A stretch of 64,000 nucleotides of DNA, from NCBI GenBank assembly GCA_000165345.1, contig CM000431.1:224001-288000 (forward strand), read 5' to 3'. The number at the start of each line of letters is the position of its first letter. Position 1 is the stretch's first letter. The notes under the pieces were generated by a model, which was not told the origin of the DNA, made no database searches, and worked only from the letters and a program-made list of their open reading frames with translations. Positions 31,798 to 56,227 of this stretch are shown here, one piece after another. A program made the translations under genes and the position numbers.

Positions 31798-31819
31798 TGC
31801 ATGCAATAATGTGCATGCA
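31798..31819. promoter_or_regulatory. Two TGCATGCA palindromes in a convergent 3'-3' gap
   Basis: TGCATGCA occurs at 31798-31805 and 31812-31819, between the stop at 31648 (plus gene) and the stop at 31929 (minus gene). Confidence 0.35.
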
Positions 31820-31928
31820 TTCCCTATACTTGCAACATTTTATTCGTAATAAATATACAAAAGAAAGAACAAAATAAATTAATAAAATGTAAAATTTAAC
31901 AATATTAAACAATTACTTAACTTGACCC

Positions 31929-32984
31929 CTAAACTTTTTCTAGTTGTTCGTCATTTGAAATTAAGGCAACTTTTTCTGATGTTTCCGCTTTCATTATTTC
32001 ACATTTAGATTCTGAGCTGCTAATAAGATTATTATTTGGAAGAGGATCAACTAGCAAATTCTTTTCTCTGAATAGAAACCAAAGGAAAATAAGTAAAAGC
32101 GGATAAAATAATGTAAAAATAAAAATTAATAAACTTGGAGCTATCTTTATATGATTTTCATCGTTAAAATTGAAAAATGTATATAAACCATTTATACTTA
32201 TTGGTAGCAAGGAAAGAAATGAATTTGGAAAGAGATTTATGGCGCCAATTGCCAAAAGAATTCCAATAATATATGCATATAAATAAAGGCCATGCAATAA
32301 AAAGAATGGTTGATAAGTAGAGTAACAATCCCAAAAAACTAGAATACTTGCAATTGCATGTTTGGCTATTGCTAAAATTAGAGTTACACTTGTATTTGGG
32401 TGAGAAACCATCCAATATCCAATATTTACTATAAGTCCTGTAGGAAGTAGAAAACTTTGAATCATCCATGCATACCAACATGTCCAATTCAGATAACTTG
32501 CTTTTCCAATTATATCTTCAATTTCTGCAATATTTTTCCCATAAATATTGTCATCGATGCTTGAGCTCACTAAATTCTGCGCCTGGATTGAAACAATACT
32601 TAAAACAAGAAAATATCCTATTGTTGCAATACTGCACCAATTTGTAGTATAGTACCTTGCTAAGTTTTCAATCCTCCAAATTTTTATTTCTGTAAAAATA
32701 TCGTATAGTATAATTGTACAAAAAAATACCAGGCAAAATAGCCTGAATAAGAGTACTTTTGAATGATTAACATAAGGTAGCCAACTATTTGAGAAAATTA
32801 TTCTACAATCTCCTCTAGCTAATTTGAAATATAGTCTTGAGAATTGGAATTCCCATAGGAAAGATTTCCAATAGTCACTCAAACTTTCATTGAATTGTTC
32901 ATTTTCTAAAAATAAGTTATCTTTGATTAAATTATTTAAAGGTTTTGTTCCAAGAATACCCAATACATCATTATTTCCAATCAT
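31929..32984 (-). CDS. Polytopic membrane protein, family not recognised
   Basis: Single 351-aa ORF with about 7 hydrophobic helices, for example VLLFRLFCLVFFCTIILYDIF, WCSIATIGYFLVLSIVSIQA, VTLILAIAKHAIASILVFW, FFLLHGLYLYAYIIGILLAIGAINLF and LLIFIFTLFYPLLLIFLWFLF. Confidence 0.65.
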   Translation of the reverse strand: MIGNNDVLGILGTKPLNNLIKDNLFLENEQFNESLSDYWKSFLWEFQFSRLYFKLARGDCRIIFSNSWLPYVNHSKVLLFRLFCLVFFCTIILYDIFTEIKIWRIENLARYYTTNWCSIATIGYFLVLSIVSIQAQNLVSSSIDDNIYGKNIAEIEDIIGKASYLNWTCWYAWMIQSFLLPTGLIVNIGYWMVSHPNTSVTLILAIAKHAIASILVFWDCYSTYQPFFLLHGLYLYAYIIGILLAIGAINLFPNSFLSLLPISINGLYTFFNFNDENHIKIAPSLLIFIFTLFYPLLLIFLWFLFREKNLLVDPLPNNNLISSSESKCEIMKAETSEKVALISNDEQLEKV

Positions 32985-33379
32985 TACTTTTCAATTTGAT
33001 TCAATTTACGAATAATTCTATTTTTTGGAAGAGGGAGTTGTGTGATAAGGATTTTAGGGATTACACACGAATCTTTAACTTTAATTTTATATTATTTAAC
33101 TCCGGATTAAAGTTATTTTTACGATAATCATGCCATATAAAAACCAAATTAGCTTTCAATAATAAAAAAAAACTCGAATTTATGATTATTAATTTTTAGA
33201 AATTATTTAGGCCTAAAAAAAATGAAATAAAATTTATTCATTGCTCAGTCAGGCCGGAGTTAACATTACACAAAAAATTATGGCATAACACACAATAAAA
33301 TAAATTAGAAAAAAATAAAATCAGTAAAATTTATTGAAGTCAAAAAGTATAATATTTTTAGAATAATAAATTAACACTT

Positions 33380-33964
33380 TCAATAAATATCTGAACCAAA
33401 TTTATTGATCATGCTATTACTCATTATGGAAGAATGAGACGACTGAATATACATATTCAGTGTTTCATTAGCGTCAACTAACTTTTTGAGTTGGACCTTA
33501 TACTCACTAAGCTCCCTATCTTTCTGTGAACATAGCTCATTTAGTTGTGAAAGCTTATCCAACAACGACTTAACTACCTTTTGTAGGGTGGTATGGCTGT
33601 TTTGCAAGCTCTCATACTTTTTAACAAGTTGTCCGTAGCTCTGTTGCTCTTCTGCAGATTCTAAATCTTGCAATCTTCTTCCCTCCACTTCTGTTCCAGA
33701 AACAGTTCTAGTCCCTAATACATTCTCAGATCCAACTCCAGCTTCAGTAATTTCATTTCCTGTTCCCAATGAAGCTGTAGGAGCAAGAACTGAATTCTCC
33801 TTCTCACAAATATCTCCAATAAACCCCAATACTTGTCTACCATTGTAATATTCATTCAAGTTTCGCCTTTTGTCTCCAAATCCATATATGTCAAAATTAC
33901 CACCCATCAATTGCTCATGGCAAGACACCTCAACCCCTTCTGATCGCTCCTTACGCTTATTCAT
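33380..33964 (-). CDS. Hypothetical protein with C-terminal coiled coil
   Basis: 194-aa ORF. The C-terminal half has heptad-like character (LQDLESAEEQQSYGQLVKKYESLQNSHTTLQKVVKSLLDKLSQLNELCSQKDRELSEYKVQLKKLV). No family recognised. I found no convincing upstream exon. Confidence 0.55.
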   Translation of the reverse strand: MNKRKERSEGVEVSCHEQLMGGNFDIYGFGDKRRNLNEYYNGRQVLGFIGDICEKENSVLAPTASLGTGNEITEAGVGSENVLGTRTVSGTEVEGRRLQDLESAEEQQSYGQLVKKYESLQNSHTTLQKVVKSLLDKLSQLNELCSQKDRELSEYKVQLKKLVDANETLNMYIQSSHSSIMSNSMINKFGSDIY

Positions 33965-35933
33965 AATCTAACAGACGTACTTGATAGCAAGAAAATAATC
34001 TATCAGCACGTCATGACGTTTAACATGATTCTTCTTTCTTGATTCTGATGCCTTGAAGTTTATTACCACTTCCTAGTCGGACAATAATTTCTTGTTTTGA
34101 TTTGGGACTAGGCTATCAAAATCACCAAGATACTGTTAAAAATAGAAATATTTTTCAAATTTTACAGAAAATCTGAATGTATGGCTTTCTTTGGTTATTT
34201 TTTTGCTCTGTCCTCCCCCAATGTACTTACTAAAGTTGTAGTCCTTTTTTTTTTACTTTGAAACGCACTCTTTCCTTTACGAAAAAATGAATCTCTTTTC
34301 CCGCCTAAACTTAACGACAATAAGTATATTTAATATAATAAATTAAAATCAAAAAAATACATAAATATATTACAAGTAAATGAATAAATAATAAAAATGT
34401 ATATATTTATCTTTATAAATATTATTATGTAAATAAATTAGAATTAAATGAATATGGATATTTAGTAGATTGTTCAAATGGAGCATATTCACATATTTGC
34501 CAGTCTATAGGTTAAGTTTATTTGTTTGAGGAATTTAATATTTGGATTTCTTAAAATGTGATTTGGCAATGTGTGTGAATATTAACTTTAATATGTACAT
34601 CTATTTTTCGTTCATTCCAAAAACTATTTTAAATCTATTTATTTGTTTTTTTTTTGTTGAAATTTGAAATTAGTTTGAGCTACTTGGATTTGATATTTTT
34701 TAGAATAATTTACTCTTAATTCACTCCAATTGTACTGAGTTAGGTTTTCAGCTATAATTTCGTGCTTAAAGTAACAATGATTTTAGATTCGGATTGAGAG
34801 TATATACTATCTATCGAATTTTGGGTTAAGTTTATCTAAGTAGGGATACGGAGGAGATATTCTAAGAAATTTGAGTAAGTTGAATTGTAATTTGAATGTA
34901 CATTTGGTATTTGAGCATTTTGAAAAATTTGTTTATCTTAAAATTAAGACGAGTTACAACGTTGATAGAGCGTTTAGTCTTTTCGCATATTGGACTTTGT
35001 ATGAATATTTAACCTATGCATGAAAAAAGAAGTGGACAAGTTGTTTGCACACAAATACAATTTATTGAGAAATATATTGCAGATCAAACAACTATAACTT
35101 TAGAATGCTCGTTGAAATTAAAACAACATTATCAGGCAAATAAAGCAATCGTGTTAATTACTAAAAAAACAGATGAACTAGGTAAAATGAACTTGAATCT
35201 TTGTTAAAATAATTTGAATATTAAAAACACTTTTCCGCAATTATTCTATGCAAGCCGCATGCAAAATGAAAAGTGTTTGCACAGGAAATAATCTCTAGAA
35301 CGCCCGCCTAACCCTTTGATAGAAATAATTTAGAGAATCCATGCAATTATTGTGGGGAGGCGCCATTTTAGTCTTAAGTTTCGTAAATAGAAAGTGTGCA
35401 TGCAAATCTGGTAGTTTGCAAAGGTTGTGAATACATATTTAAATTTAAATATTGTATGTAACCTGTATTTATGCTTTAGAGCTGAACTGAATAGGGCTCA
35501 GTGGATAGCTATGTTGAAAAGTTCATACGGGATATCTATAAAATACAATACAAAAATACAGATATTCCAATCAAATGATTAAAATTAAGTAGTGTAGAAA
35601 AGGGTTAGAATAATATAATTAAAGCAAAATTAAGTTATGTTCCTTTCGTGGCCTTCAGTATTAATTTTCGCAAATAGTATTTGAATATTGATGCATGGGA
35701 AAGTATTTGTAAATTGTGTGCCGCCTAATCTCTGATAAAAATGTTTAACAAATAATAGCAAATAAAGTATGAAATTAGTTTATATAGAAGTTATTCTCAT
35801 TTTGATACAAGATTGGAATAAATAATTATACTGTGATGCTAATATTATAAGACTAAAAACTAAGAGTTATTATATAATTAATAGGGAAACAGTAGAGAAG
35901 TATTGCCGATTAAGAAAAAAAAAGAAGTTAAGA

Positions 35934-36685
35934 ATGGAGAACACTCAGGTAAATAGCGATTTATCGAGTAAGTTTGTAGTAAATTTCTCTCAAATTATGG
36001 AAAAGTTGCCTCGGAATTGGCTTATTGGAGGAGGATTGATAGAGAGAATATTGATATTTAAACCGAAAAATACTAATATATATTACCCTTATTATTAATT
36101 GATTGTTTAGATATTGAGAATTTTATAAGGCTTTCGTACAAACAACAATTGGAGCTTGTTACTGAACAAGAGAAGCAAAAGTTAAACTTATATGCTGATT
36201 ATATTTTGAATTGTATTCCTTTAAACATTAGAAAGTTGAAGATTAGAGAAATACTTGAAGACCAAGGCAAAAATTTAATATTATCAGGTAAGTCTATCTG
36301 TTTAACTCTCTAATAGATTTGTTATATTAACTTTAATAATCCTTCAGAGGATGAGAAAACTGAAATTTTAAAAAAGTTAAATGAAATTGTTAGTATGAAG
36401 TCATTCAAACCAGAATCAATGCCAGTGAACTCATCTTCGGAATCAAAGAATGTAGGACTATACAAGGACCATCTTAAAAAGTCTAGAGTGAAGCTCTTGC
36501 CAATTTCAAATACATGCTATACGATTATTAGAGAAAAGACTGAAGATTTTTTTCCAGGTGAATGTGATGAAAACGCTGATAATCACAACAGTAACGGACA
36601 AATCCAAGATAATATGAACAAAAATACCTTAGAAAATCAAATGTTAGATTCTAACATGATTAGAGATGTGATAAGTTCACTATAA
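35934..36685 (+). CDS. Three-exon hypothetical protein; N-terminal helix resembles the Borealin/Nbl1 N-terminal motif (tentative)
   Basis: Exons are 35934-35967, 36111-36287 and 36348-36685. Introns are 35968-36110 (GTAAGT...TTTAG) and 36288-36347 (GTAAGT...TTCAG). Phases check out (34 + 177 nt, phase 1 at both junctions), and exon 3 joins in frame to the track ORF at 36395. The spliced N-terminus is MENTQVNSDLSNIENFIRLSYKQQLELVTEQEKQKLNLYADYILNCIPLNIRKLKIREILEDQGKNLILSEDEKTEILKKLNEIVSMKSF... Confidence 0.6.
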
Positions 36686-36719
36686 AAGGAAAAAGATCTA
36701 CCATAATATTAGTGTCTAA

Positions 36720-37226
36720 TTATATATATGGATGCACTTTTTTGATATTTGAGATAACTTTACTATAAATACTATAAAATGGTTTGTCTTGAACTGAACT
36801 CTCGCTGTTGAATGAAATCATTAGTACACTAGCTGGTCTCTTAGATTTACATATAGTACCTAAAGTCTTCTTACTTCCAAGATATCCATAGTAAATATTC
36901 TTTTCCTCGCACAAAATAGGAATATGAGCAATAATATCCACTGGATGAATATCACAGGCAATTAGAACAAGCCCTGTCTGCCCTTTTCGTATGCTCTTTG
37001 TAACTTCATGTACTCCTCTGCGTATATATCTAACTTTCTTACTTCCTTTCTCTTTCCTTTCTTCCTTCTCATACTCTTGAACCTTCTTCACAAGCTTAAG
37101 ACATCTCTCTAAAAGCTTTCCTCCAAAGATTGGGTCTGCTATTGCTGATTTGTTTGTAATTGCTTCCTCTCCTTCCATTTCAATCTCGTCTTCAACATGA
37201 CTTAATTCTGTTGTATCTTCCTTCAT
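36720..37226 (-). CDS. NHP2: H/ACA snoRNP protein NHP2 (L7Ae/L30e family)
   Basis: 168-aa ORF with an acidic N-terminus followed by an L7Ae core: IRRGVHEVTKSIRKGQTGLVLIACDIHPVDIIAHIPILCEEKNIYYGYLGSKKTLG...KRPASVLMI. This aligns with NHP2 (RRGVKEV..KG.KG..V.AGD..P.....H.P..CE......Y...K..LG) from memory. Confidence 0.85.
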   Translation of the reverse strand: MKEDTTELSHVEDEIEMEGEEAITNKSAIADPIFGGKLLERCLKLVKKVQEYEKEERKEKGSKKVRYIRRGVHEVTKSIRKGQTGLVLIACDIHPVDIIAHIPILCEEKNIYYGYLGSKKTLGTICKSKRPASVLMISFNSESSVQDKPFYSIYSKVISNIKKVHPYI

Positions 37227-37394
37227 TTCTTCAACCTTTTATTCTTCCAAATTAATTGTCAAATTAACCCAATCTGTATAGTCTAAACTCTTTTATTCAC
37301 TTTTTTTTTCAAAATACTTTTCCTATTCTAAGTTTATGCAGCTTTTCCCTTTTAACTCAAATATTACAAGTCAATTCATTAATTAAAAAGTCAT

Positions 37395-37428
37395 TTTCCG
37401 CCAATCATTTGGGCGGGGCATTGGGCGG
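37395..37428. promoter_or_regulatory. TTTCCGCCAAT + GGGCGGGG + GGGCGG cluster in the NHP2/Ulp1 divergent promoter
   Basis: The sequence is tTTTCCGCCAATcatttGGGCGGGGcattGGGCGGta, between the starts at 37226 (minus) and 37918 (plus). Confidence 0.45.
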
Positions 37429-37917
37429 TACACTTCAATAGTCAAAAATAATTGTAAGAAATTTAATGTGGGAATTTAAAGTGAGATAAATGAGTAAATA
37501 AAAAAGAAATAGGAAGAAGGAAAGAGTAGGAGTAGAGATATCGATTAGATTTCATAGGAGGAGGTCTTTGAAATTTATTGAATGAAAGGTCTAATAATAA
37601 TAGGTTGAGTATTTTTTCAATATTAAAATTGTTTTTATAAGAGTTATATAAAAATATTTGCACAACAAGATTCCTTGAAAATAAAAAAAAGTCTACTTTA
37701 AGATAAAGGCAAATTTTGTCATGTATACTAGTTTTGGCTAAGTTTGAAACCATTTGGATATAAATATAATTTATTTATTATGAAATTTATGTAAGCAGAA
37801 TAGAGGCAGCCAGATACTAAATATTGATATACAAAAAGGAAAGGGAGGTTTTCATACCCACCATTTCTTTTTGTAATAAAGTCCAATTCTCTGTGAGATT
37901 GCCATTCAGACTGGAAA

Positions 37918-39036: not shown

Positions 39037-39090
39037 ATACCAATTAAATAACAGTTTTTTTTTAAACTTAATTATGAACGTCAAAGCATT

Positions 39091-39104
39091 GCATGCATGC
39101 ATGC
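39091..39104. promoter_or_regulatory. GCATGCATGCATGC in a convergent 3'-3' gap
   Basis: Lies between the Ulp1 stop (39036) and the RRP40 stop (39219). Confidence 0.35.
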
Positions 39105-39218
39105 GTTTGTTTTGGTAAACTACTTATTTCAGGAAAATATAATCAAATTCAATATAGCCAATTTATTAATATGCAACTATAAGGAAGCAAATGATAACAG
39201 GTCTAATAAAGCAAAAAG

Positions 39219-40260
39219 CTAAGATTGCGATTGAATCTTACTCCAGAAACTTTCTAAAATAACTTCAAGCTAGAAATTTCAAGGTAAATATAAGTTATTT
39301 GAGCCCGCCAAAAAAAATTATTTAAGCTTACCTGTGGTTTTGTACAGTTTGGGATGACTTTTAAAGCACTCATAATAAGAAGCATTTCTTTGATGTTTGA
39401 TGCTGAAAACCAAATGATTCCATTTTGACCAACACAAATTTCATATGCAAAGTACTTGGAAAGAGCCTCGAGAACATAACTTTGGTCAGCAAGAAGTATT
39501 TGTGCAACAGACTGAGGCACAGTAACTGTCATGCCGTCTTTAATGCATGACTGGCTTTCTCCAGGCAATGAAGATCTATCAGATTTGGAGTAATCTTCAA
39601 TGATATTGGTATTTTTGTAGTTGGAGTTCTTTAAAACTCCTAAATAATTTTCATTATTCGACCATGTTTTCTTCTCCTCTGGTGTGATACATGTAAGTTC
39701 AATTTCCCCGCTTTCAAGGTCTACGTAGTTTATTCTTGAACATACATAATTACCTGGAACAAGATTTGGCTTATTTCTTTTAGTTGCTCCCTCAAATGCC
39801 ATATCAGGAAGGATTCCATCATGCGAGCAGTTGAGCGAAACCTTTGAAATATACAGAGTTGAGTTAATTTCCTTAAGATTAAAATCTTTTCAAGTACAAC
39901 TTACCTTATAGAATTCTCCAAGCTTGTTAATTATCGTTCCTACTACAACGTCTCCTTTTCTTGGAATGTACTAAAATTTCAAATGAAAAGAGAAAATAGA
40001 AAATAAACTTCAAACTTACACATCCTTTAAAAGGCAAAACAATTCTATCATAAGGCCAATATGGTCTCTTGCACTCAACCCCAGCTATCTTGTCTATAAT
40101 AGGATTAATCAATCAAATATTTAATAAGTTGATAAACATGTGAATATATATACTCGCATATTTAAAACTTACTTTTCTTTGATTCTTGAGAATTTATGGA
40201 TATCTCTTCTCCTGGAAGAACAATTCTGAAATCATCTGAAATTTTGTCATTAATATTCAT
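39219..40260 (-). CDS. RRP40: Exosome complex component RRP40 (EXOSC3), 5 exons
   Basis: Exons on the minus strand are 40260-40173, 40093-40020, 39970-39905, 39841-39332 and 39269-39219. Introns are 79, 49, 63 and 62 nt, with donors GTAAGT x3 and GTAAGC and acceptors TAG, TAG, AAG and TAG. Phases sum to 789 nt, giving 262 aa. The spliced protein is MNINDKISDDFRIVLPGEE...FKGC/YIPRKGDVVVGTIINKLGEFYK/VSLNCSHDGILPDMAFEGATKRNKPNLVPGNYV...ICVGQNGIIWF... The S1 motif (YIP..GD.V.G) and the motifs AFEGATKRN.PN and G.NG.IW match RRP40 from memory. The last intron is the least certain; the read-through alternative ends at 39254. Confidence 0.8.
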
Positions 40261-43534: not shown

Positions 43535-43694
43535 TCATTTTATTTATTCTTTGATTTAAAACCCCCTGATAATTAATTAGGCATACACCTTGTATTATTG
43601 CTTTTTGCATGGTTCCAATTTCATTATTTAAAAATTATGTACTTAATATCGTTTTCCATTTTTTCTTTCTTTTTTTCTATTTTAACATTTAACA

Positions 43695-46655
43695 TCACTT
43701 TCGGATTATCCTTGGTTTCATTAATTCAGCCATATTTACTTTTATTCCACTACTAATTAATGACTTAAATCCCAAATTCGGCTCCTTTCTTACCTGGACC
43801 GGAGCGTGTGGTCTATTTTGATTATTTGTTAGTTTGCCGCCAAACAAATTATTGGATGCCGGCCCCCTTGTCATTTTTTCGCATGCACGCTTATTTGCAT
43901 GTTGATTAAAATTATTGTTTGTGGATGATGAATTATTGGAGTTTGAGAATGGAACAGAGCATGTATTCAATCTAGGTCTGAAACTTACGTTACTTTGACT
44001 TTTTTCATATATGTTATAGCCTTTATTTCCCTCTAAATTATTATTATTGTTATTTGTGGCCAATTTGATAGTTTTAGAATTGATTACTCTGCATTGAGAA
44101 AGCCTTGCTAAAATTTCATCATCTTTATCAATTATTTCTTTATTAAATTCGCTTCCCGCCAAATTTGCATTTTTTTGTGTGGGATTTGCATACGAAAGAG
44201 TTTTGCCCTTAATTTTCAAATCATTTTGAGGTTTCTTTAAAATATTAGACGAGGATGTTTTCTTGGGAATATCATTTGAGTTGGGAATATTAATCGTTGG
44301 AATTTTAACTTTTTGGTGATTTTTGGTTGAGTTACTTAACTCCTCGTTTTTCGTTTTTGAAACTAGGACTGTTCTAGAAATTGAGCTAGTGGCTGCCATT
44401 TTATTTTCAATATGAATAGGATTTAAAGGGAATAATTGAGTTTTTGAGTCCTTTGGGCTAGATAATCGGGAATTTTTAATAAGATTTTGTTCTTGAGTTT
44501 TAATCTCTTCAGCTTCTAATTGAAGTAAATCTTGTTTTGGAGGCTTATCTTCTTGATTATGCTCATCCTTGATTAAATCATTGTTGTATTCATCTACAAA
44601 CTTGTCAGGAATATCCAAAATATCTTCACAGTGTTTGTTAGCAACTCCATCCATAACCTCATTCTCCTTGGTTTCAATGAAGTCAGAATTAACTTCGGAA
44701 ACAGCTATAGAATCTACTGCAGATTCAGGATCAGACTCAGAAAATGCGTCCGAGTTATAGGATGAATCCTTGAATTGACTATTTAAGGAGCTCATAGCGT
44801 TTTCATAATTTCTCTCCCATCTATGAGTATTTAGTCTTGATTCGCATACGCCAAGAAGTCCCTCTCTAGCAAAGTAATCGTTAATTGCTTGAATATATCT
44901 TTGTACATGCTCCTCCCCTTGTTCGAGTTCTCCTTCTACATCTGCCAATCTTTCAGATGAGCTTTCAAAACTTCTATCCTCTACATTTTTGTAAATAATA
45001 TGGGGATTGCTGTCATAAATATCCTTGACTATTCCCAAAGCACTGCATTCAGAGACACTCTTGTCGTCTTCTAATTGGTTTTCTTCCATCTTTCCCTTAA
45101 TGCCGTCCAGACCTCGTGTTTCACTATTTAAGTTAGAGTTCAAATTCCATTTTTCACTTAAAAATGCTTCCTTAAATGATATATTCATTTGTTCCATCTT
45201 ATTTATCTTTTCCAAGAGTAAATTAAACCTTTGAATCTTTTCACTTAATTCTTCCAGGCTTTCTCTACTATTTTTGGGGCTTCCAACCTCACTTTTGATA
45301 TCTTGTACTTTTTCTTTTTTTGTTTGTATATTTTCCTCGGTTTCTTCTTTTTTATTTGTTTCTTGAAAATGATCTTTGTTATCTTTTTCTTCTTGTTCGT
45401 TTTTCTCATCTTCTAAGACCTCCACTAGTTTGGAAGTATGGTTGGATTGTGAGAAAGGTCCATTATTTACAATATAAAAACAATTATCTCCGAAACCTAA
45501 CAAATTTGGTTCAACTTGACTTTCGTAGGGGGAATAATCTCCAAAACTAAGTGATCTCACAAAATTCTCATAATAGTAAGAGTTACCATCAATTACGCAA
45601 TTGTCAATGTTCTGTTCCATGAGATTCAAAATATCTGTCCCAACATTATTCTTATACTTAATAACCAAAATTGAATCTTCTTCAATCTCAATTTCTCCTT
45701 GATTACCATTCAGAGAAACTTCTTCAAGCTCTGATTCACTTTCTAGAATCTGTTCATCTTGAATTTCACAATTATAGCATTCCTTCAAATCTACTTCTAT
45801 ACTGCGATTATTAATAGGCTCATAACCAAAGTCATTAAATTTTTGATCAAAACTACTCTCAGAGTATTTCTCTTCTTCGAAATTCCTTGTCTCATAGACA
45901 TTCACCTCAATTTCTTCACTCGTATCAGAATTCATGTTAATCTTTTTTTCACTTAAAAGCTCATCCCTAACAGTCTCAAGTTCAATATCTTTATCCCCTT
46001 TCTTGATCTCAACCTCAACTTCCATTTCCTGATATCTAGAGCTCTTGTTCTTACTGAGATCTACATGTGATACATCTCTTACTGTTACAGTATTATCACG
46101 CTTTGGTATAATTAAAATCTCATATGGTTCTAAGACTTCAAGTTCTCGTTGATCATTTGAATAACAAATCTCGGAATACATATTTTCAGCTTTTCCAAAT
46201 GTTTGAGGATCCGGTAATGTTGTTACTGGTCCATTCATAATTGTTGGCTGGTTTTGAATATGAGAGTTTCGCTGTATATTAAATCGATTCTGATTTAATT
46301 GTTGCTGCAACTGATATTGGTATTGAAGTTGTAAACTATATTCATATTGCTGTTGAGTAAACAGAAGTTGTTGTTGCTGTTGCTGAAGTTGGACTTGCTG
46401 ATATTTAATTACCTGTTCCAAGTAATTTTGATGATTTACAAATCCAACTCCATTGTTATAACCTACTGTTCCACTCATTTCGTTTCTGGGTACTAGTTGA
46501 CCTCTATTTCCACCTCCACTGTATGAGTATAATTGATCATTATTAAATGAATATCTCATTGTGAGTTGATTACGAAGTACATTCTGAGGCTTTATATTAT
46601 TATTATTATTATTATTCTTATTATTATTATTGTTAATATTATTAAGCTTAAACAT
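43695..46655 (-). CDS. Large low-complexity protein (poly-Asn N-terminus, Gln-rich block, acidic Glu/Ser/Lys-rich body)
   Basis: 986-aa single ORF containing NNINNNNNKNNNNNNNIK near the N-terminus and QQVQLQQQQQQLLFTQQQYEYSLQLQYQYQLQQQL. No catalytic or fold motif recognised. Confidence 0.65.
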   Translation of the reverse strand: MFKLNNINNNNNKNNNNNNNIKPQNVLRNQLTMRYSFNNDQLYSYSGGGNRGQLVPRNEMSGTVGYNNGVGFVNHQNYLEQVIKYQQVQLQQQQQQLLFTQQQYEYSLQLQYQYQLQQQLNQNRFNIQRNSHIQNQPTIMNGPVTTLPDPQTFGKAENMYSEICYSNDQRELEVLEPYEILIIPKRDNTVTVRDVSHVDLSKNKSSRYQEMEVEVEIKKGDKDIELETVRDELLSEKKINMNSDTSEEIEVNVYETRNFEEEKYSESSFDQKFNDFGYEPINNRSIEVDLKECYNCEIQDEQILESESELEEVSLNGNQGEIEIEEDSILVIKYKNNVGTDILNLMEQNIDNCVIDGNSYYYENFVRSLSFGDYSPYESQVEPNLLGFGDNCFYIVNNGPFSQSNHTSKLVEVLEDEKNEQEEKDNKDHFQETNKKEETEENIQTKKEKVQDIKSEVGSPKNSRESLEELSEKIQRFNLLLEKINKMEQMNISFKEAFLSEKWNLNSNLNSETRGLDGIKGKMEENQLEDDKSVSECSALGIVKDIYDSNPHIIYKNVEDRSFESSSERLADVEGELEQGEEHVQRYIQAINDYFAREGLLGVCESRLNTHRWERNYENAMSSLNSQFKDSSYNSDAFSESDPESAVDSIAVSEVNSDFIETKENEVMDGVANKHCEDILDIPDKFVDEYNNDLIKDEHNQEDKPPKQDLLQLEAEEIKTQEQNLIKNSRLSSPKDSKTQLFPLNPIHIENKMAATSSISRTVLVSKTKNEELSNSTKNHQKVKIPTINIPNSNDIPKKTSSSNILKKPQNDLKIKGKTLSYANPTQKNANLAGSEFNKEIIDKDDEILARLSQCRVINSKTIKLATNNNNNNLEGNKGYNIYEKSQSNVSFRPRLNTCSVPFSNSNNSSSTNNNFNQHANKRACEKMTRGPASNNLFGGKLTNNQNRPHAPVQVRKEPNLGFKSLISSGIKVNMAELMKPRIIRK

Positions 46656-47494: not shown

Positions 47495-47923
47495 TTAGCA
47501 ACAACAACAGAGCTTGCAAATACAGAGACAGTGAATAATTCCTGCAATAATAATAATTGCAACAACTACAATAGCAATGATAATACCAGCCTTCGCTCCA
47601 CTACTTAAAGAATCCCATGTATTCTTTGCTTGTTCTTGAGCATGATCGGCTAACTCTTTATAAAGATTATTCATATTATCTTGAACAATATCGCCAATTG
47701 AATTGCTTGAACCTTGATTGGTTCCCGAATTACTACTGCTACCAGCCTCTTGAAGTGCTCTATCATTTTTCTCCTGAATACAGTTTTCATTACAAGAGCT
47801 CTGATCTTTTGAATCAGCTAATTCAAGAGCAGTAGATCTAAATGGATGATAAGCATCTTGAGAATTAACTTGATAGTAACTGATAAAAAGCACCAACAAA
47901 GATAAGAAAAAACTTCGCTTCAT
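47495..47923 (-). CDS. Small type-I membrane protein with a Cys-cluster tail
   Basis: 142-aa ORF with a signal-peptide-like N-terminus (MKRSFFLSLLVLFISYYQVNS) and a Ser/Asn/Gln-rich ectodomain. A C-terminal TM segment (AGIIIAIVVVAIIIIAGII) runs into HCLCICKLCCCC. Confidence 0.6.
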   Translation of the reverse strand: MKRSFFLSLLVLFISYYQVNSQDAYHPFRSTALELADSKDQSSCNENCIQEKNDRALQEAGSSSNSGTNQGSSNSIGDIVQDNMNNLYKELADHAQEQAKNTWDSLSSGAKAGIIIAIVVVAIIIIAGIIHCLCICKLCCCC

Positions 47924-48054
47924 TTTCTTAGTAGAATATGTAACTTAAATATCTTAACTAATGAATTTTCTTAGTTTTAGTGATAGACTTTTTTTTTTGT
48001 GGACCTTTATACATTTTTTGTACGTATTCACACTTATTAAGTTAAAGTCTAAAA

Positions 48055-48093
48055 GGCGCCAACAGTTTGACAATTTTTTTAAATGTGCATGCA
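48055..48093. promoter_or_regulatory. GGCGCC plus TGCATGCA upstream of the 142-aa membrane-protein gene
   Basis: GGCGCC is at 48055-48060 and TGCATGCA at 48086-48093, 130-170 nt upstream of the ATG at 47923 (minus strand). Confidence 0.4.
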
Positions 48094-49297
48094 GATTAAT
48101 TTTGGCAATATTCCTCAAGTATATTATTTATACAAGCTAAACTAACTGTGAGATATGTAATTCAATTTGTTAATTCTTTACTTGGATAAAATACTTTCCT
48201 TTAAGTTAATTTAAAAATAACTAAAATATACAGGTTTACCTATATTTCTATTAACAATGAATGTTAATATACGTAATTAAGTTTCTCCCCACACATTAAT
48301 CATTATTAAATAAATTTCATGCACCTCCAAAAATTAATTTTTATCATTAATTCACTAATTCAACATAACAAGAATATTTTTCTAGTCTTTATTTCATAAT
48401 AGCACAGTTTGGCTTCCAATAGAATGCGAATCTTCTTGATGGAAAGAGTTGAGGTTGACGGGTTGTTTTTCTTTCTTTTGAACCTATACTAAAATTTAAA
48501 ATATGCACTAAATATTACATGCTAGGCGCCAATAATCAACAAATTGATGACTTTGTTGCATGTTTTTTTTTAATTAAAAAAACACACCTTTGGCTCTTTT
48601 TGTTAAAGTATATTGATCTTTAACTCTCCCTACTTTTGTTTCCCCATATATTTTTCTCCATAATTGACTCATTTGTATAACCAAATTCTTTTTTTCATTT
48701 AAATAAACATTTATTATATATATTCTGTTTACATGTGAGTTAATTAAATATAATCTGGGTGCTTCTAAACAAGAATTCAAAAAAAAAGCGTTGCTAAGAC
48801 ATGAATATGAAAAGAAAATCAAGTCCAAAGAATTTGAATAAAATGGATGTAAATTTAAGTATTTCTTTAATATGATCTTTATTGTGGGAGTAGTTTAATG
48901 AACATCAAGTTAGAGTATTTGTAGTGGGGTTGATATTACTAAATCATTTATAATAAAAAACTCAGGATAATTCAAAGTTAAGACACAAAGTTTTCAAATC
49001 ATTTAATTTTGCTAATTGCAGCTAGTAATTCAGATTTTGAAATAAAAATAAAGTTTGTAAATAATTACTATTAAACCCATTTTTATAGTCGAGGCATGCT
49101 AATTTCTCTAATTTTATTTAAGAACCTTAAGTATTTGAATATTTGATTGTTCTCTTTCTTGAGAGATATTTGTAATTGTTCTAGTTCTATATTTTAGGTG
49201 AGTTTTTTTATAATAAGTAAATTCGATCAATTTTTTTATTCAAAAAAAAAGGATGAAACAAGGACAAGTATTTTCTATAAGGTCAAAATATATTGCT

Positions 49298-49328
49298 GGC
49301 GCCTATTAATGCATGCAACATGCATGCA
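49298..49328. promoter_or_regulatory. GGCGCC + GCATGC + TGCATGCA cluster inside the long ORF-free interval
   Basis: The sequence is ctGGCGCCtattaatGCATGCaacaTGCATGCAtt. Confidence 0.35.
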
Positions 49329-49932
49329 TTGCCGGTATATAATATCAATATCTACTATATTAAAGTATAAGTAGGCAAATTTCCCTAGATTTATTGTCTA
49401 TATAACTACAATTTATATAATAAGGGACGATTTTACTAGGATAAAAAGTAAACAAAAAAGATATTAGATATATTTAAATTAGTAAATTGACGATTGGAGT
49501 TATCAGTATAAGTGGGAAAAGCTGTCTCAGTATGATACCCGTTAGTAGCCTTAAAATTAGTGGGTTCAAGTAGGTTTCTCCTATTTAATAAACTTATAAA
49601 AAATATTTATCTGGAAAATTCAGATATTTGAATGAAGGCATGCTTTAGGAATTTGCATCAAGCTTATAGTAAAGAAAGAGTAATTGTTAAATATTAGAAA
49701 AAAAATGATTACGACAAAAAAGAAATTCCAATGAATAACACAATTAGTTGTGATAATTATTGCTTATTAGAATTTTTAAAGATTCATCTATGTTGAAAAA
49801 ACAAAAATTTCCCCCCAAAAATTCCTTGTTATTAAATTTATTTCAATACGTAATATAAAACTTGACATTCAATAATTTATTTATTAATATATATTTTGCA
49901 AAATTTATTATTTTATTTATTAAAGATGGTTT

Positions 49933-49938
49933 GGCGCC
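49933..49938. promoter_or_regulatory. TTTGGCGCC about 270 nt upstream of RPL35
   Basis: The sequence is ggtTTGGCGCCctgag. Confidence 0.4.
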
Positions 49939-50209
49939 CTGAGACAGAAATGAGTCTAATACCGGTATAGGTCTTAAAAAAATAATAATAATGTTAATAA
50001 TAAATAGTAAAGACGAATATTGAATAATAAAACGAATATTAACAATTAATTTAAATTAATTACCAATATTTTAAATTGCGCTTAGACCAGGAATTTAGCA
50101 AAATTAATTAGAAACTAATTTAAAGGGTGAAAATTCTTTAGTTGGTTTAATTTCTCTAAGGCTTATTTAAAGGGAACATCCACTATAAGGTTATTAAAAC
50201 AAATAAAAA

Positions 50210-50590
50210 ATGAACAAAAACTCAGGATTACAGATTAAGCAGTTGATTTCACTCTCTGAGGAAGAACTTACCGTTAAGATTGACGAACTCAAGAAGGAAT
50301 TAGCAAGCTTGAGAGTTATTCAATCTACTGGTACTGCTCCAAACAAGCTTTCTAGAATTAATGTTGTCAGAAAGGGAATTGCTCGTATCTTGACAATCTT
50401 GTCTCAAAGGAACATTAAGAGCTTAAGAGAGAAACACGCAGGTTCTAAATTTATGCCTTTAGACTTACGTAAGAAGTTGACTAGAGCTAAGAGAAGAGCT
50501 TTAACTCCACAACAAGCTAAGAAGATGACCGTTAAGGCCAGCAAGAAGGCTTTGAATTTCCCAAAGAGAAAGTTTGCCATCATTGCATGA
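50210..50590 (+). CDS. RPL35: 60S ribosomal protein L35 (uL29)
   Basis: 126-aa basic ORF. The stretch EELTVKIDELKKELASLRVIQSTGTAPNKLSRINVVRKGIARILTILSQ matches the uL29 core (L..LK.EL..LRV....G....KLS.I..VRK.IAR.LTV) from memory. Confidence 0.9.
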   Translation: MNKNSGLQIKQLISLSEEELTVKIDELKKELASLRVIQSTGTAPNKLSRINVVRKGIARILTILSQRNIKSLREKHAGSKFMPLDLRKKLTRAKRRALTPQQAKKMTVKASKKALNFPKRKFAIIA

Positions 50591-50805
50591 GCAGCTTAAC
50601 GTTGGTGGTTTATAGGAGTTAGAAAAAAAATAGTATGGGCTTAATATTAGTACAATTGGCGTGCATACACCTTGTTTTAGTATTATATGCCTGTTTAGCA
50701 TCTTTAGTACTAGGAAAGTAAGCTACTATAAAAGAATTAAAGTCATAAAGCGTCTACCTTATCCTAATTACTATGAATCTTCTTAATACCTCAAATGATC
50801 AAGGA

Positions 50806-52119
50806 TTATTGTTGATTTGGATGACTCTGTATCCTCTGATCTTGCCCAAATCCACTACGTCTCCTGATCTTTTCACATGCAGAGACTGATGCTACAGTCT
50901 TATTCACTCTTTCTTCAAAGTTCTTGTTCTTACATGACAAATACTTTTCTATTGCTCTAGGTACCCATGGCTGTCTATAGTATTCTGCATACTTATCAGC
51001 AATCTGGTATTCATAAATAGCATTAGGATCTGATAATATGTTATTAATTGAGTTATTTCCATATAATTGAAAGTGCTTTGTAGTTAATAGTGAGTGAATG
51101 AAATCCACAGGATCATTCGCAAATCCTTGATAAAAGTTTATCTTATTACAAGAGCTATATATCTTTGACAATATACTCTGATTCTTATGATAAAGCTCCT
51201 CTAAAGCTTTATTAATGTTAGAAAATTCACCACTTTCTTGGATTCTGGTTGACATATTTGGAAGCCACAATGTGATGTCTCCTGGAACATTCTCAGTAAG
51301 ATCTATAGTAAAATCATAGGTTGATTCATTGTCAATCCAATCTCCTTTCAAAGCTAATCTATGTCTGATCTTTATTGGTTTTGGAGGTAATAAATGCTGT
51401 TTTAAAAGATCTGGAACATCTTTAAGTAGAACATGTTCAGTATCTACTGATAACAATTTGCCAAGATATTCATCTATCATAATACTATCATGAGAAGCTT
51501 TTGAGTTTTGAAGCCCTTTCATTTCCACATATTGCCAAATTCTTTTCACAATACTCGGAAGGTTGGCCAAACTTGTTCCCATAAACTCTTCTAACTGAGG
51601 AGATAAGCTATAGTGAGGAGTTCTATAATCTAAAAAAAACAGTATATCTATATCTCTTTCCTCATCTCCAATACGATGTATTTCCAAACCATCACATTCT
51701 GGAGTTGGACTTGTCTTCTTATCCCATATAATAGTTTCTGTTTCTGACAACTGAATAATAATTTTAGAAAAGATTGAAGTAAATCTAGGCTGATAAGCAT
51801 CTCCTTGAATAATGGATCCAAGTATCTTAAGAGTCCAAGATGGAGGAACTTTTCTAGTCCAATCATTATCAAAGCTAAAAGATTCCAACTCAGCATCAGT
51901 TGGTTTCTGACTCTCATATGTGTTGAAAATATGTACTCTTAGCTTCTTCCTATAACATCGAATGCTCTTATCATCCATTAGAGTTAGCCATACATCGCTT
52001 AAGCTATACCTCTGTTGGAGTATTGATTCATCTAAAAGTCTCTCATATTCTAATAAATTTTCGTACTGGTTATACTGCTCCTGAGAAAATTCTTTAATAC
52101 ATTCTGGTATTCTGGCCAT
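50806..52119 (-). CDS. SWI/SNF BAF60/SMARCD-type subunit with SWIB/MDM2 domain
   Basis: 437-aa ORF. The N-terminus RIPECIKEFSQEQYNQYENLLEYERLLDESILQQR...KKLRVHIFNTY parallels BAF60 (RIRELVPES.AY..LL.FERKLD..I.RKR...RKLR.YISNTF). The SWIB-like segment is LANLPSIVKRIWQYVEMKGLQNSKASHDSIMIDEYLGKLL. Confidence 0.8.
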   Translation of the reverse strand: MARIPECIKEFSQEQYNQYENLLEYERLLDESILQQRYSLSDVWLTLMDDKSIRCYRKKLRVHIFNTYESQKPTDAELESFSFDNDWTRKVPPSWTLKILGSIIQGDAYQPRFTSIFSKIIIQLSETETIIWDKKTSPTPECDGLEIHRIGDEERDIDILFFLDYRTPHYSLSPQLEEFMGTSLANLPSIVKRIWQYVEMKGLQNSKASHDSIMIDEYLGKLLSVDTEHVLLKDVPDLLKQHLLPPKPIKIRHRLALKGDWIDNESTYDFTIDLTENVPGDITLWLPNMSTRIQESGEFSNINKALEELYHKNQSILSKIYSSCNKINFYQGFANDPVDFIHSLLTTKHFQLYGNNSINNILSDPNAIYEYQIADKYAEYYRQPWVPRAIEKYLSCKNKNFEERVNKTVASVSACEKIRRRSGFGQDQRIQSHPNQQ

Positions 52120-52483
52120 TTCTAATTAGAGTATTCTCCCAGTTTTTTGTTGTATTCACACAAGAAACCTAATTACTGAAATGACTTTCTGTCCACCAAT
52201 TTTACTCTTTATAGAATTTCACTATTTTTGTATATTTCCGTGATGCTTAAATAGTCAATTGCTTCCCAATCTCTTAATCTTAAACGTAACTAGAGAATAG
52301 GAAGCTCAGTATTTAGTTTCCTCCCTCTCTCAATTACGTATTACTGTTGGAGTACCCTAAGCGTTATTCCTCTTCAAACCATTAAATTCTTTCTTTCTTA
52401 GGCTCGCCCTTAATTTACCTTGAATTTTTTTCCCGGCTTAGAATGATTTATTGCCTGCAGACCAAATGAATAATATTGGAGAG

Positions 52484-52508
52484 CCCGCCAATAGCCACAT
52501 ATGGCGCC
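52484..52508. promoter_or_regulatory. CCCGCCAAT plus GGCGCCAAA upstream of the BAF60-like gene
   Basis: The sequence is gaGCCCGCCAATagccacatatGGCGCCaaat, about 370-390 nt upstream of the ATG at 52119 (minus strand). Confidence 0.4.
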
Positions 52509-52609
52509 AAATATTGTGAAGTGGGGAGAATAAGTAATGAACATGGAATAAAAGGTGAAGAAATAAAAGAATAGTGATTTAATTAGGTCTAGTAACATCT
52601 ATAGAGCTA

Positions 52610-53325
52610 GCTAGTTACTTGTTGAGAATTCCATGACAAGTTTCTCATATTCGGTTAATGGAGCAGCTTTAGAGACATTTTCCTGGTGAAGCTTACATTC
52701 TTCAGGAGTCATCTTCAGAATTGTTTGAATACCAATTTTCTCAACGCTTTTTGCTGTAAATTTGTTGTTATTGAGAAGCAAGGCTTTCATTAAGGATTGA
52801 AAGTAGTTTTTCTCAAGTTCTCTTTTGTAGTCTTGCCGATTAATAAGATTGAGCGCAGCTAAATCTTGTTTATATAGTTTATCAGCCTAAGTATGACATT
52901 ATTAGGAGTATGTAATTGAAATAAGGAAATTAGTAGGAAGAATCGATCAAAATGGATTAAATGAATATAGATGAGTATTTGATAGTAAACAATAGTAAAT
53001 GAATGAATACTTTTAAGCTTACCTTAATTAATAATGCTTTATGTAGAGATAATGCTCTATTGTCAATGGAAGACCAGGAGTCTTGAATTACTTTTGTTTT
53101 AGTAATTTCTAAGTCTTCTCCTTCATCTGACCTAGACAACATTAATAAATGCTCGACATAATCAAGGAAACCCCAATCCATGGTGTGGCTAATTACATCA
53201 CTTTCTTCATCACTGGACTCTTCAGGAGGAGGTGTTGATCCTGTCTCACTTAAAGTTTTCTCTGTATTCTCGGAAGCACTTGCATTTGCTACTTCTCCGA
53301 CATATTTATTGATAAAGTCAAACAT
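52610..53325 (-). CDS. Hypothetical acidic/helical protein, 2 exons, acceptor site unresolved
   Basis: Exon 1 is 53325-53023 (101 codons, phase 0, donor AAG|GTAAGC). The downstream open frame runs to TAG at 52610-52612 and reads ...LAALNLINRQDYKRELEKNYFQSLMKALLLNNNKFTAKSVEKIGIQTILKMTPEECKLHQENVSKAAPLTEYEKLVMEFSTSN. The in-frame acceptor is a weak AAG that places the exon 2 start at 52864. The stronger TTAG acceptor, with exon start at 52886, is out of frame by 1 nt (see findings). Confidence 0.5.
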
Positions 53326-53517
53326 TTGAGAGATCTTTACTATAAAGGTTTAAAAACGGAATGATTTAATTCAAGAATTTAGGCAGAAAACTAAGTTTGA
53401 ATAGTTTAATTTTCATCCCTTTTAAATAAATCCTTTATTATTCGTTTTCCTCTTTTTAAGTATTATTTCTCAAAATCTTTGTCATTTATTACATTTATGT
53501 ATGCATACACAACAGTT

Positions 53518-53540
53518 GGCGCCGGAACACTCAGGCGGGA
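53518..53540. promoter_or_regulatory. GGCGCC plus GGCGGGA in the divergent promoter of ARF1 and the 53325 gene
   Basis: The sequence is ttGGCGCCggaacactcaGGCGGGAac, between the starts at 53325 (minus) and 53973 (plus). Confidence 0.45.
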
Positions 53541-53954
53541 ACTGTGGCAACATAAAATAAAGGAGGCTAGGCTAAGAAGGAATGGGGATAGTGGGGAAAG
53601 AGGATAAGGAAGAATATAACTCAAGGAAGATAAGATTTTAAGCGTACTTCGGGCTATTGCTTTAGAGTTTGAGATTGTATAATTAAAGCAAACTGGTATT
53701 TGTGGAAGAAAAAAATGATTGGTGTAAAATATAGTGGTTTAATGAAAATTAACAATTCGGCAAAGGAACCGGCAAAATGTATACTGGGATAAATAAAGCG
53801 CCTGTGGGGCAAATGCCAAGATCAAGGCATAAAAACAAATTATTTTCAAGGGAATAAAACTGAGTCTTGAGGAGAAAAGAATATCAAATATTGGATAGTG
53901 ATCTTTAAAAATTAGTTTTTTAAAGAAAATCTAGCATAGGATTAATAAAGGTAA

Positions 53955-54524
<570 letters not shown>

Positions 54525-54954
54525 TCTCTTAGATAATTCTACTTTTAAGTATAATGCCTAATTTAAGGCCTAGGAATCTAAAATTGAGTGTATTGAGAGC
54601 TATTTTCTCTCAATATGTACTACCAAAAGTAGTGAAATCTCTAATAAAGAATAGATTAAAATGTTTCCAATAAGTTACTTTTATTCACATGCTTTTATTT
54701 ACTCTTAAGTTTTCATCAAATATTCATATTAAACATATTTTTTTGGTCACCAGTTTCCCGCCTTAAAGTAGTTGTAGAAATAGGGGGAAAAATTACTGGT
54801 ATAATTATTCGAGCCAAAGAATAATGAACTATTAGAATTGACAATATTTTATTTATTTAAAATCTAATCTTACAATTTTATTAAATAACGCATTTTGCGG
54901 GTAATTGAATTTCTTTTAATGATATAACTACAAAATGTGAGCCTCCATATGTAA

Positions 54955-55026
54955 TCCCACGTAGTCTAGGGGCTAGGATACTCGGCTTTCACCCGGGCGA
55001 CCCGGGTTCGATTCCCGGCGTGGGAG
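54955..55026 (+). tRNA. tRNA-Glu (anticodon UUC)
   Basis: Manual cloverleaf. Acceptor is TCCCACG/CGTGGGA. D arm is GTCT-AGGGGCTA-GGAT. Anticodon stem is CTCGG/CCGGG with loop CT-TTC-AC. Variable region is CGAC. T arm is CCGGG-TTCGATT-CCCGG. Discriminator is G. It matches the eukaryotic tRNA-Glu pattern (TCCC..GTCTAG.GG.TAGGAT...CCCGGGTTCGATTCCCGG). Confidence 0.93.
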
Positions 55027-55028
55027 TG

Positions 55029-55032
55029 TTTT
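55029..55032 (+). terminator. T4 run 3 nt after tRNA-Glu (possible weak Pol III terminator)
   Basis: The sequence g-TG-TTTT-atcc follows directly after the discriminator base. Confidence 0.4.
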
Positions 55033-55150
55033 ATCCGTGAAGGAGGATTGCACCGCTGCCTGACTCCGATCGCACTGTTTAGCCCGCAGTGCGAGCTGTA
55101 GGAGTTCGGGCCTCGGTTTGGTCTGGGGAGAGGAGGTTCCACCGCGGATA
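55033..55150 (+). ncRNA. Candidate structured small RNA (about 118 nt, Pol III-like), family unassigned
   Basis: This is a GC-rich island in AT-rich intergenic DNA. A terminal stem pairs 55033-55039 (AUCCGUG) with 55143-55149 (CGCGGAU): 7 bp including one U-G pair. An internal hairpin pairs 55070-55077 with 55087-55094 (8 bp, 9-nt loop UUUAGCCCG). It is extended by 55059-55067 pairing with 55101-55109, with one mismatch. A T7 run follows immediately. The only ORF here (54973-55212, minus) overlaps the tRNA and looks spurious. Confidence 0.5.
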
Positions 55151-55151
55151 G

Positions 55152-55158
55152 TTTTTTT
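55152..55158 (+). terminator. T7 run, Pol III-type terminator after the candidate ncRNA
   Basis: The sequence ggata-g-TTTTTTT-aa follows directly after the closing stem. Confidence 0.5.
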
Positions 55159-55293
55159 AATGTATTTTTTGTGTCTTGAACTTTTATAGTTTAGATGAGT
55201 GTTTTCTAGCAATTTTTTATTTATATGAGAGAATAGTTGTTTTTTTGTTAAAACATAATAAGTGTTAATTAGTATGCTGATAGGAAAGATAGA

Positions 55294-56141
55294 ATGAAAA
55301 AAAGAAACGTCTTAATTGGAGTAACGGGGAGCGTTGCAGCAATAAAAATTCATGAATTTATAAAGAAATTAAAAGAAAAAGTTATAAGTAACAATATTGA
55401 AATAGAGATCAAAGTTGTTGCAACTGACTCAGCAAAAAACTTCCTCAATGGTTTAGCTTTAGATTTATTAGTAGATTGTCAAGATGAATTTGGTAATTGG
55501 AAGAGTATGGGGGACGATATTCCTCATATAAGCCTCAGGCAATGGGCTGATTTATATATTATTCTTCCTTTGTCGGCAAATACGTTGGCAAAACTATCTA
55601 ATGGGCTTTGTGACAATGTTTTGGTAAGTTAGCAAAAGTTGTGATTTATGGAGAGGTTGATAAGGTATGAAAATACAAGTTAATGAATACAACGAGTTAT
55701 ATTGTTTTGATATGGAAAATTCTATAAATTTACGAATATGAATAACTTTAACATTTCATAACAATATAAAGTTGTAATGGCAACACCTAAATATGCTAGA
55801 ATATTGCTATTTCGAAGCTTTTTAAACAAACATGTTTAAAGAGTGCATATAGTTCTTCTCCAATTAAAAATCTTGTTCATAACTAATTAACTGACTTAAT
55901 TCAGACTAATATTGCAAGAGCTTGGGATTTCAAGAAACCCATTATAGTTTGTCCCGCAATGAACAGTTTCATGTGGGAGCACCCAATTACTTTAACTCAA
56001 ATTAACATTCTTATCTCTTTTGGTTACAAAGTGGTATTCCCAATTGAAAAAAAGTTGGCATGTGGCGAATATGGGATGGGTGGAATGCAAGAAATTGAAA
56101 AAATTGTTGAACAAATTCTTCTTGAACTAAACTCATCCTAA
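55294..56141 (+). CDS. PPCDC: Phosphopantothenoylcysteine decarboxylase (flavoprotein, CoA biosynthesis), 2 exons
   Basis: Exon 1 is 55294-55623 (110 codons, donor TTG|GTAAGT). The intron is 55624-55904 (281 nt, acceptor TTCAG). Exon 2 is 55905-56141, in frame with the track ORF at 55959. The protein reads VLIGVTGSVAAIKI...HISLRQWADLYIILPLSANTLAKLSNGLCDNVL/TNIARAWDFKKPIIVCPAMNSFMWEHPIT...ACGEYGMGGM, which matches PPCDC motifs (G.TGSVAA.K, PAMN..MW.HP.T) from memory. Confidence 0.85.
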
Positions 56142-56207
56142 ACAATTTTAGCTTATGGATAATATAAATTTATTTTCAGTCATTTCATGTTAACTACATG
56201 TCATCAT

Positions 56208-56227
56208 TGCATGCAAATCTGCATGCA
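56208..56227. promoter_or_regulatory. Two TGCATGCA palindromes in a convergent 3'-3' gap
   Basis: TGCATGCA occurs at 56208-56215 and 56220-56227, between the PPCDC stop (56141) and the minus-strand gene ending at 56483. Confidence 0.35.

Follow-up and report, generated by a model that had tools for sequence, protein, structure and literature searches.

What does a transcription-factor palindrome do between the tails of two convergent genes? The question is raised by a 64-kb stretch of Cryptosporidium parvum chromosome 3 (hereafter the window, meaning the whole stretch of DNA analyzed), which runs from roughly cgd3_720 to CDPK1, has a G+C content of ~30%, and is tightly packed with genes. In three of its convergent intergenic gaps, designated g1, g2, and g5, the palindrome TGCATGCA with its GCATGC core lies downstream of both neighboring genes. 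Agreement with a published binding site, enrichment in noncoding DNA, and gap-specific conservation together indicate that these are genuine, selected clusters of putative binding sites for TGCATGCA-recognizing ApiAP2 proteins of the cgd2_3490/cgd1_3520 type. Their most likely function, which we put forward tentatively, would be that of a direction-neutral promoter module, at which antisense or intergenic transcripts start in a stage-specific manner within the convergent gap.

The window contains 20 copies of GCATGC, as compared with a mean of 2.98 and a maximum of 10 in dinucleotide-preserving shuffles, none of which (0/100) reached 20; 12 of the 20 sites extend to the full palindrome, for a total of 12 copies of TGCATGCA. 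Nineteen of the 20 fall within 13.9 kb of gaps, and one within the 49.5-kb genic span. The noncoding excess reported in the initial annotation of this DNA is therefore borne out, and the positions it listed are right to within 1–2 nucleotides (nt; its site at 59545 is TGCATGC at 59546), though it omitted noncoding copies at 29446, 49094, and 49638 and a coding copy at 43881. It also correctly placed full sites in three convergent gaps out of the five that exceed 100 nt, where base composition predicts only 0.007–0.013 GCATGC per gap. Clusters of GCATGC number 3 in 1230 nt of convergent gap, 8 in 8167 nt of divergent gap, and 3 in 4547 nt of tandem gap; the motif is thus at least as dense in convergent gaps as in promoter-type gaps, and is clearly not limited to gaps containing a known promoter. 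The convergent excess over other gaps is marginal, and not significant alone (Poisson P ~0.13 for GCATGC clusters and ~0.035 for clusters of the full 8-mer). The sites of all three convergent gaps form tight clusters of several copies, versus 1–2 of the 11 promoter-side clusters (post hoc P ~0.01–0.03). Strict E2F-like sites ([CG]GCGC[GC] or GGCGGG, scored from 29 to 64 kb), whose positions in the window's gaps are kept across species, show a different distribution, being found in 11 of the 14 promoter-type gaps but in no convergent gap (0/7).

The g1 gap (31649–31928) separates the stop codon of a gene for a 419-residue alpha/beta hydrolase (+ strand, CPATCC_001055) from that of a gene for a 351-residue membrane protein (− strand, CPATCC_001056); it holds two copies of TGCATGCA, at 31798–31805 and 31812–31819, with the spacer ATAATG between them, and an E2F-like core, ATGGCGCTT, at 31758–31766, 32 nt to the left of the pair. 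In g2 (39037–39218), which lies between the stops of a Ulp1-like protease gene (+ strand, CPATCC_001062) and RRP40 (− strand), the overlapping AP2_1 sites of TGCATGCATGCATGC occupy 39090–39104, 54 nt past the plus-strand stop and 115 nt past the minus-strand stop. The g5 gap (56142–56482) is bounded by a two-exon flavoprotein gene (+ strand, ending at 56141) and the stop of a gene for a 136-residue protein (− strand, CPATCC_001074). Its TGCATGCA copies, at 56208–56215 and 56220–56227 and separated by AATC, sit inside a dyad-symmetric element (56195–56239) with outer arms TACATGT (56195–56201) and ACGTGTA (56233–56239). Across the three gaps the sites lie 54–164 nt past the plus-strand stops and 110–256 nt past the minus-strand stops, that is, at the 3' end of the sense coding sequence (CDS). 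These gene boundaries were taken from the annotation of C. parvum assemblies GCA_015245375.1 (CP044420.1, in which the three sites fall at roughly 258.8, 266.1, and 283.2 kb) and GCA_048859185.1 (CM109963.1, in which they fall at about 257.25, 264.54, and 281.66 kb), whose proteins match those encoded in the window exactly. This annotation adds spliced genes absent from a plain scan of open reading frames (ORFs), namely RRP40, ending at 39219, and the flavoprotein gene; locus tags in the window run from CPATCC_001055 to 001078, and CDPK1 is the final gene.

The site identified on protein-binding microarrays for the C. parvum ApiAP2 proteins cgd2_3490 and cgd1_3520, as well as for P. falciparum PF14_0633, is TGCATGCA (PMC3734150; PMC4117751), and the published consensus is [T/C]GCATGC[A/G] (PMC3734150; PMC4117751). 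Exact copies of TGCATGCA, fitting this consensus, are present in all three gaps; the ApiAP2 identity given to the motif in the initial annotation agrees with these data.

Conservation was followed through the syntenic loci of C. meleagridis, C. sp. chipmunk genotype I, C. ubiquitum, C. canis, C. felis, and C. bovis (right half only), among which gene order and orientation are kept except in C. bovis, where the region left of the FtsJ gene is rearranged. In g1, TGCATGCA is the best-conserved 8-mer: it is present in C. meleagridis, chipmunk genotype I (two copies with the same 6-nt spacing), C. ubiquitum, and C. canis, and C. felis has ACATGCAA only. The g2 motif is identical in C. meleagridis, is represented by one TGCATGCA in chipmunk genotype I, and in C. 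canis reads GCATGCGCATGC followed by GGCGGGA; C. ubiquitum has ATGCATGT only, and C. felis has none. For g5, C. ubiquitum carries two copies of TGCATGCA, C. canis retains the motif, chipmunk genotype I has TACATGCA and TGCATGTA, C. bovis has only ACATGCAT, and C. felis has none; the dyad itself is kept in chipmunk genotype I (arms ACGTAAT and GTTACGT), C. ubiquitum, and C. canis, where the arms ACGTCATTTGCATG and CATGCAAATGACGT match perfectly over 14 nt. Overall, GCATGC recurs in the orthologous gap of four of five other species for g1, three of five for g2, and two of five for g5 (with the CATGCA core of g5 in four of five), against an expectation of 0.006–0.05 per gap; in the orthologs of the other two long convergent gaps, g3 (43535–43694) and g4 (50591–50805, between the ends of the RPL35 and SWIB genes), it was found in 0 of 10. 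Between genes, the four closest species are no more than 0.6–0.74 identical, and the C. canis gaps, at 37–49% G+C, have little other sequence in common with C. parvum. Retention of the motif in the same gaps despite this low identity, together with its absence from g3 and g4, indicates gap-specific purifying selection on the putative g1, g2, and g5 sites at orthologous positions.

These sites also resemble annotated promoters in part of their company. In promoter-type gaps the motif lies 10–65 nt from an E2F site, a pairing that is conserved across species and is exemplified by TGGCGCCTATTAATGCATGCAACATGCATGCA at 49298–49328. Among the convergent gaps the resemblance is clearest in g1 and in C. 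canis. A GGCGC core adjoins the g1 motif in five of six species (C. parvum, C. meleagridis, C. ubiquitum, C. canis, and C. felis), with GACGCC in its place in chipmunk genotype I, and strict TTTGGCGCC-type E2F sites stand beside the motif in C. ubiquitum (TTTGGCGCC), C. canis (TTTGGCGCCCGCC), and C. felis. In C. canis, all three convergent gaps have an E2F-like site within 10–90 nt of the motif, where a composition-based estimate gives a chance of ~0.08 per site; in g2 and g5 such company is confined to C. canis and to GGCGGAAA in chipmunk genotype I g2.

The promoter reading also has a precedent. In the 100 bp upstream of C. parvum long noncoding RNAs (lncRNAs), Li et al. (2021; PMC7840661) identified BGCATGCAH and E2F as the two leading motifs; their catalogue comprises 396 lncRNAs, 92% of which are antisense and tend to begin at the 3' end of the sense CDS; 309 of 363 antisense RNAs are head-to-head with the upstream gene and 54 of 363 are not, and 19 lncRNAs have the ApiAP2_1 motif as their sole upstream motif type. 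By analogy, initiation of antisense RNA at the sites described here is plausible. Under this proposal, each cluster would serve as a compact promoter module that separates two converging genes and, being palindromic, favors neither direction. In the presence of its AP2 factor, the gap would be opened and transcription would proceed outward in one or both directions; the resulting stage-specific antisense transcripts would extend back across the 3' portions of the flanking genes and may regulate them jointly.

Expression data offer a further point that is suggestive only. Among the seven k-means expression clusters of Li et al. (Table S4), the gene pairs flanking the motif-bearing gaps (CPATCC_0010550/0560, 0010620/0630, and 0010730/0740 for g1, g2, and g5, respectively) share clusters (7/7, 7/7, and 3/3), whereas the three motif-less convergent pairs fall in different clusters (6/1, 2/3, and 5/3). 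The weight of this pairwise co-expression is limited because 14 of 57 adjacent genes share a cluster at baseline.

Several observations weigh against a promoter at these sites. Twelve 20-mers taken from both strands beside g1, g2, and g5 were unmatched among the sequences listed in the lncRNA FASTA file of Li et al., in which shorter words, used as a positive control, did match; the 11-mers of the sites are absent from the motif table of that study, and the genes flanking the three gaps are named in no row of its lncRNA table. The sole catalogued lncRNA for the gene range of the window, Cp_lnc_320, is antisense to a gene for a 192-residue protein (52611–53325) and is head-to-head with the SWIB gene across a tandem gap containing only E2F sites. 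The C. parvum g2 and g5 gaps themselves lack an E2F site. In sporozoites, the assay for transposase-accessible chromatin with sequencing (ATAC-seq) recovered E2F but no AP2 motif in open chromatin (bioRxiv 10.1101/2025.01.17.633476), so any activity of the sites must occur in other stages. The sample is also small: a single 64-kb window, in which long convergent gaps number five or six, supplemented by ten orthologous loci. The catalogue is, however, a conservative one, from which candidates resembling read-through of an upstream same-strand gene were removed (PMC7840661), and this filter would hit transcripts arising in convergent gaps. The suggestion of antisense or lncRNA promoters in the initial annotation therefore stands as plausible—it is anticipated in print (PMC7840661), and the sites are conserved and, most clearly in g1, promoter-like in their E2F company—though none of the 396 catalogued lncRNAs lies at g1, g2, or g5.

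The absence of catalogued lncRNAs at the three gaps would also fit an AP2 factor that is bound between the gene tails and acts directly on the two flanking promoters, 1–1.3 kb away, for example by looping or local chromatin opening, with no need for a functional antisense RNA. The shared expression clusters of the motif-bearing pairs fit such a shared 3' element, as do the genes flanking g2 and g5, whose own upstream gaps hold no GCATGC, only E2F. However, beyond the baseline above, runs of neighbors share clusters regardless of the motif (e.g., four consecutive cluster-7 genes), and the comparison is post hoc, with three pairs against three and a Fisher's test value of ~0.05. To our knowledge, regulation from the 3' side has no precedent in Cryptosporidium, and we consider action on both promoters from this position unlikely. 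A related formulation, to which we would give a similarly low probability, treats the paired palindrome as a bidirectional 3' control element, a single AP2-bound module that coordinates or mutually shields both genes. Such an element would explain the shared clusters, the upstream gaps of g2 and g5 without the motif, and the lack of a catalogued stable lncRNA. Shielding, in line with the insulation suggested in the initial annotation, could also take the form of a boundary or roadblock, in which a palindrome-bound protein halts RNA polymerase II past the poly(A) site and protects each convergent gene from read-through. Termination of the Reb1 type in yeast is the model for this mechanism. The location of the sites between gene ends and their tight multi-copy arrangement are consistent with it, as is g2, where the only A[AG]TAAA for RRP40 lies 52 nt past the stop and the motif ~40 nt beyond the likely cleavage site. 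Yet poly(A) signals of the partner genes (the Ulp1-like protease gene of g2, the hydrolase gene of g1, and the 136-residue protein gene of g5) are predicted beyond the motif, such that those mRNAs must read through it; A[AG]TAAA itself occurs by chance about once per 290 nt per strand, too frequently for mRNA ends to be placed reliably. Such an element is also missing from g3, g4, and two tiny convergent gaps of 18 and 34 nt, and the adjoining E2F sites are marks of promoters; a roadblock appears quite unlikely.

Activity at the RNA level appears very unlikely. Each palindrome pair could fold into an 8–10 bp hairpin in the 3' untranslated region (UTR) of an mRNA crossing it, and so affect stability, processing, or termination. 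Predicted folding energies of −14 to −26 kcal/mol (with z-scores of −2.1 to −4.0 for g1 and for the g5 orthologs) and retention of the g5 outer stem in four species are compatible with a hairpin, and substitutions in C. meleagridis g1 and in the outer stems of C. parvum and chipmunk genotype I g5 leave G–U pairs on the plus strand only. Nevertheless, a stem is the automatic outcome of a repeated palindrome, and one promoter-type gap has such a pair as well (49310/49321); orthologs are often single-copy and can form no stem (C. ubiquitum and C. canis g1, chipmunk genotype I g2). The two chipmunk genotype I g5 copies, TACATGCA and TGCATGTA, are mutually complementary, but among the variants that the DNA motif tolerates, TGCATGTA is the most frequent (TGCATGYA), making this apparent compensation weak evidence; moreover, the conserved unit is the protein-binding 8-mer. 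A more general role in 3'-end formation, which the initial annotation had offered as an alternative, is not supported: g3, g4, and the 18-nt and 34-nt gaps are motif-free in every species examined, and the two tiny gaps indicate that gene ends form without such a spacer. That the motif is not needed for 3'-end formation also favors the direction-neutral promoter module, which we continue to prefer.

Antisense transcripts, their function unknown, accompany approximately 10% of C. parvum genes, and the conserved AP2 sites of convergent gaps would offer specific, mutable handles for testing antisense or 3'-side control of their neighbors. A 3' control element, if real, would act unlike a classical upstream promoter. 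Cryptosporidium motif studies, restricted to the DNA upstream of start codons, would miss or mis-assign sites between gene tails. In the paper library searched, no publication dealing with the palindrome in convergent gaps was found. Within the window, the contrast between E2F, found in no convergent gap, and the AP2 palindrome, equally common in both classes of gap, may point to distinct functions of the E2F and AP2 families.

Other candidate elements in the window were also considered. The initial annotation had treated GCATACACCTTGT, at 43581 (g3) and 50663 (g4), as a variant of the motif, noting TGCATG at 43606 as well; all are present as described, but the orthologous stretch varies, drifts away from GCATGC, and never reads GCATGC, and we do not regard the 13-mer as a form of the motif. 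At 50663, GCATACACCTTGT falls inside a separate, strongly conserved element that fills g4. Conservation covers almost the whole gap among C. parvum, chipmunk genotype I, C. ubiquitum, C. canis, and C. felis (e.g., ATCTTTAGTACTAGGAAAGTAAGCTACTATAAAAGAATTAAAG); a possible plus-strand consensus hairpin scores −8.76 in RNAalifold, versus −0.70 ± 1.02 for column shuffles (z ~−7.9), with weak covariation. There is no Rfam match to the element, which probably represents either a small RNA missing from the annotation or a structured part of a 3' UTR. A hidden noncoding RNA to the right of the g5 motif is not supported, as identity there (0.59) is not above that of ordinary tandem gaps (0.72–0.74) and the structure signal is weak. 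A fourth tail-end site was likewise set aside: at 43881–43901, 192 nt from the stop of a gene for a 986-residue protein, GCATGCA and TGCATG encode the H-A and A-C of the conserved peptide NQHANKRACEKMTRGP. The motif is kept there in C. meleagridis, chipmunk genotype I, and C. canis and is lost in C. ubiquitum along with the amino acids; because GCATGC supplies the Ala-Cys codons of the conserved KRACEKMTRGP peptide, coding constraint suffices.

One tandem-gap copy of GCATGC (29446–29451) is also near a gene 3' end, 289 nt past the stop of the gene for a 9678-residue protein and 943 nt before the next start codon; it is kept in C. meleagridis, chipmunk genotype I, C. ubiquitum, and C. canis, 121–293 nt past the orthologous stop. 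The preceding gene is a single 9678-codon ORF (121–29157, + strand) whose repetitive product contains long stretches of threonine; the C. parvum assemblies annotate this protein with 11,621–11,696 residues, and the window therefore truncates the start of the gene. Two divergent gaps, 33965–35933 (~2.0 kb) and 47924–50209 (~2.3 kb), are unusually long and have no protein-coding gene called; jointly they contain seven of the 20 GCATGC sites and seven E2F-like sites. Locus tags 1057–1061 span only three proteins, implying two more annotated loci somewhere within 33–37 kb. The 136-residue protein beside g5 (56483–56893, − strand) has no Pfam domain, and its identity reaches 96% in chipmunk genotype I and 76–79% in C. 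bovis and C. serpentis, a degree of conservation far above that of its neighbors. A search with Rfam (E ≤ 1, 29–64 kb) and ARAGORN returned only tRNA-Glu (TTC), at 54955–55026 (+ strand) in the tandem gap that separates the ARF gene from the flavoprotein gene, and no known small RNA gene that would explain the gaps.

The sites described here have counterparts in several known systems. In compact genomes such as those of yeast and Giardia, antisense transcription can initiate where nucleosomes are depleted at the 3' ends of genes, and promoters can be bidirectional. The putative modules share with these cases a direction-neutral element at gene ends and very short spacers; they differ in that a specific, conserved transcription-factor palindrome marks the site. 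The same core motif appears in another apicomplexan as the Toxoplasma TRP-2/TGCATGC element of ribosomal-protein promoters, linked to AP2XII-8; there it is promoter-proximal and belongs to one regulon, whereas the genes flanking the sites described here are functionally unrelated. Another counterpart is the AP2_1 cis-element (Oberstaller 2013 and 2014; De Silva 2008), with which the sites share the identical palindromic 8-mer and the motif in the window at large shares the strong restriction to noncoding DNA and frequent pairing with E2F, though that element has been described and analyzed only upstream of start codons, and the present sites are downstream of both neighbors. The lncRNA promoters of Li et al. 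(2021; PMC7840661) have the same motif, there within 100 bp of the lncRNA start, and are likewise located where the sense CDS ends, with one or two copies per promoter; however, 309 of 363 of those antisense RNAs share a bidirectional promoter with a tandem downstream gene, and no such gene is present at the convergent gaps. The general idea of AP2-driven antisense initiation has thus largely been published already, and the g1, g2, and g5 sites add another example of a known cis-element, in a location that has received little study.

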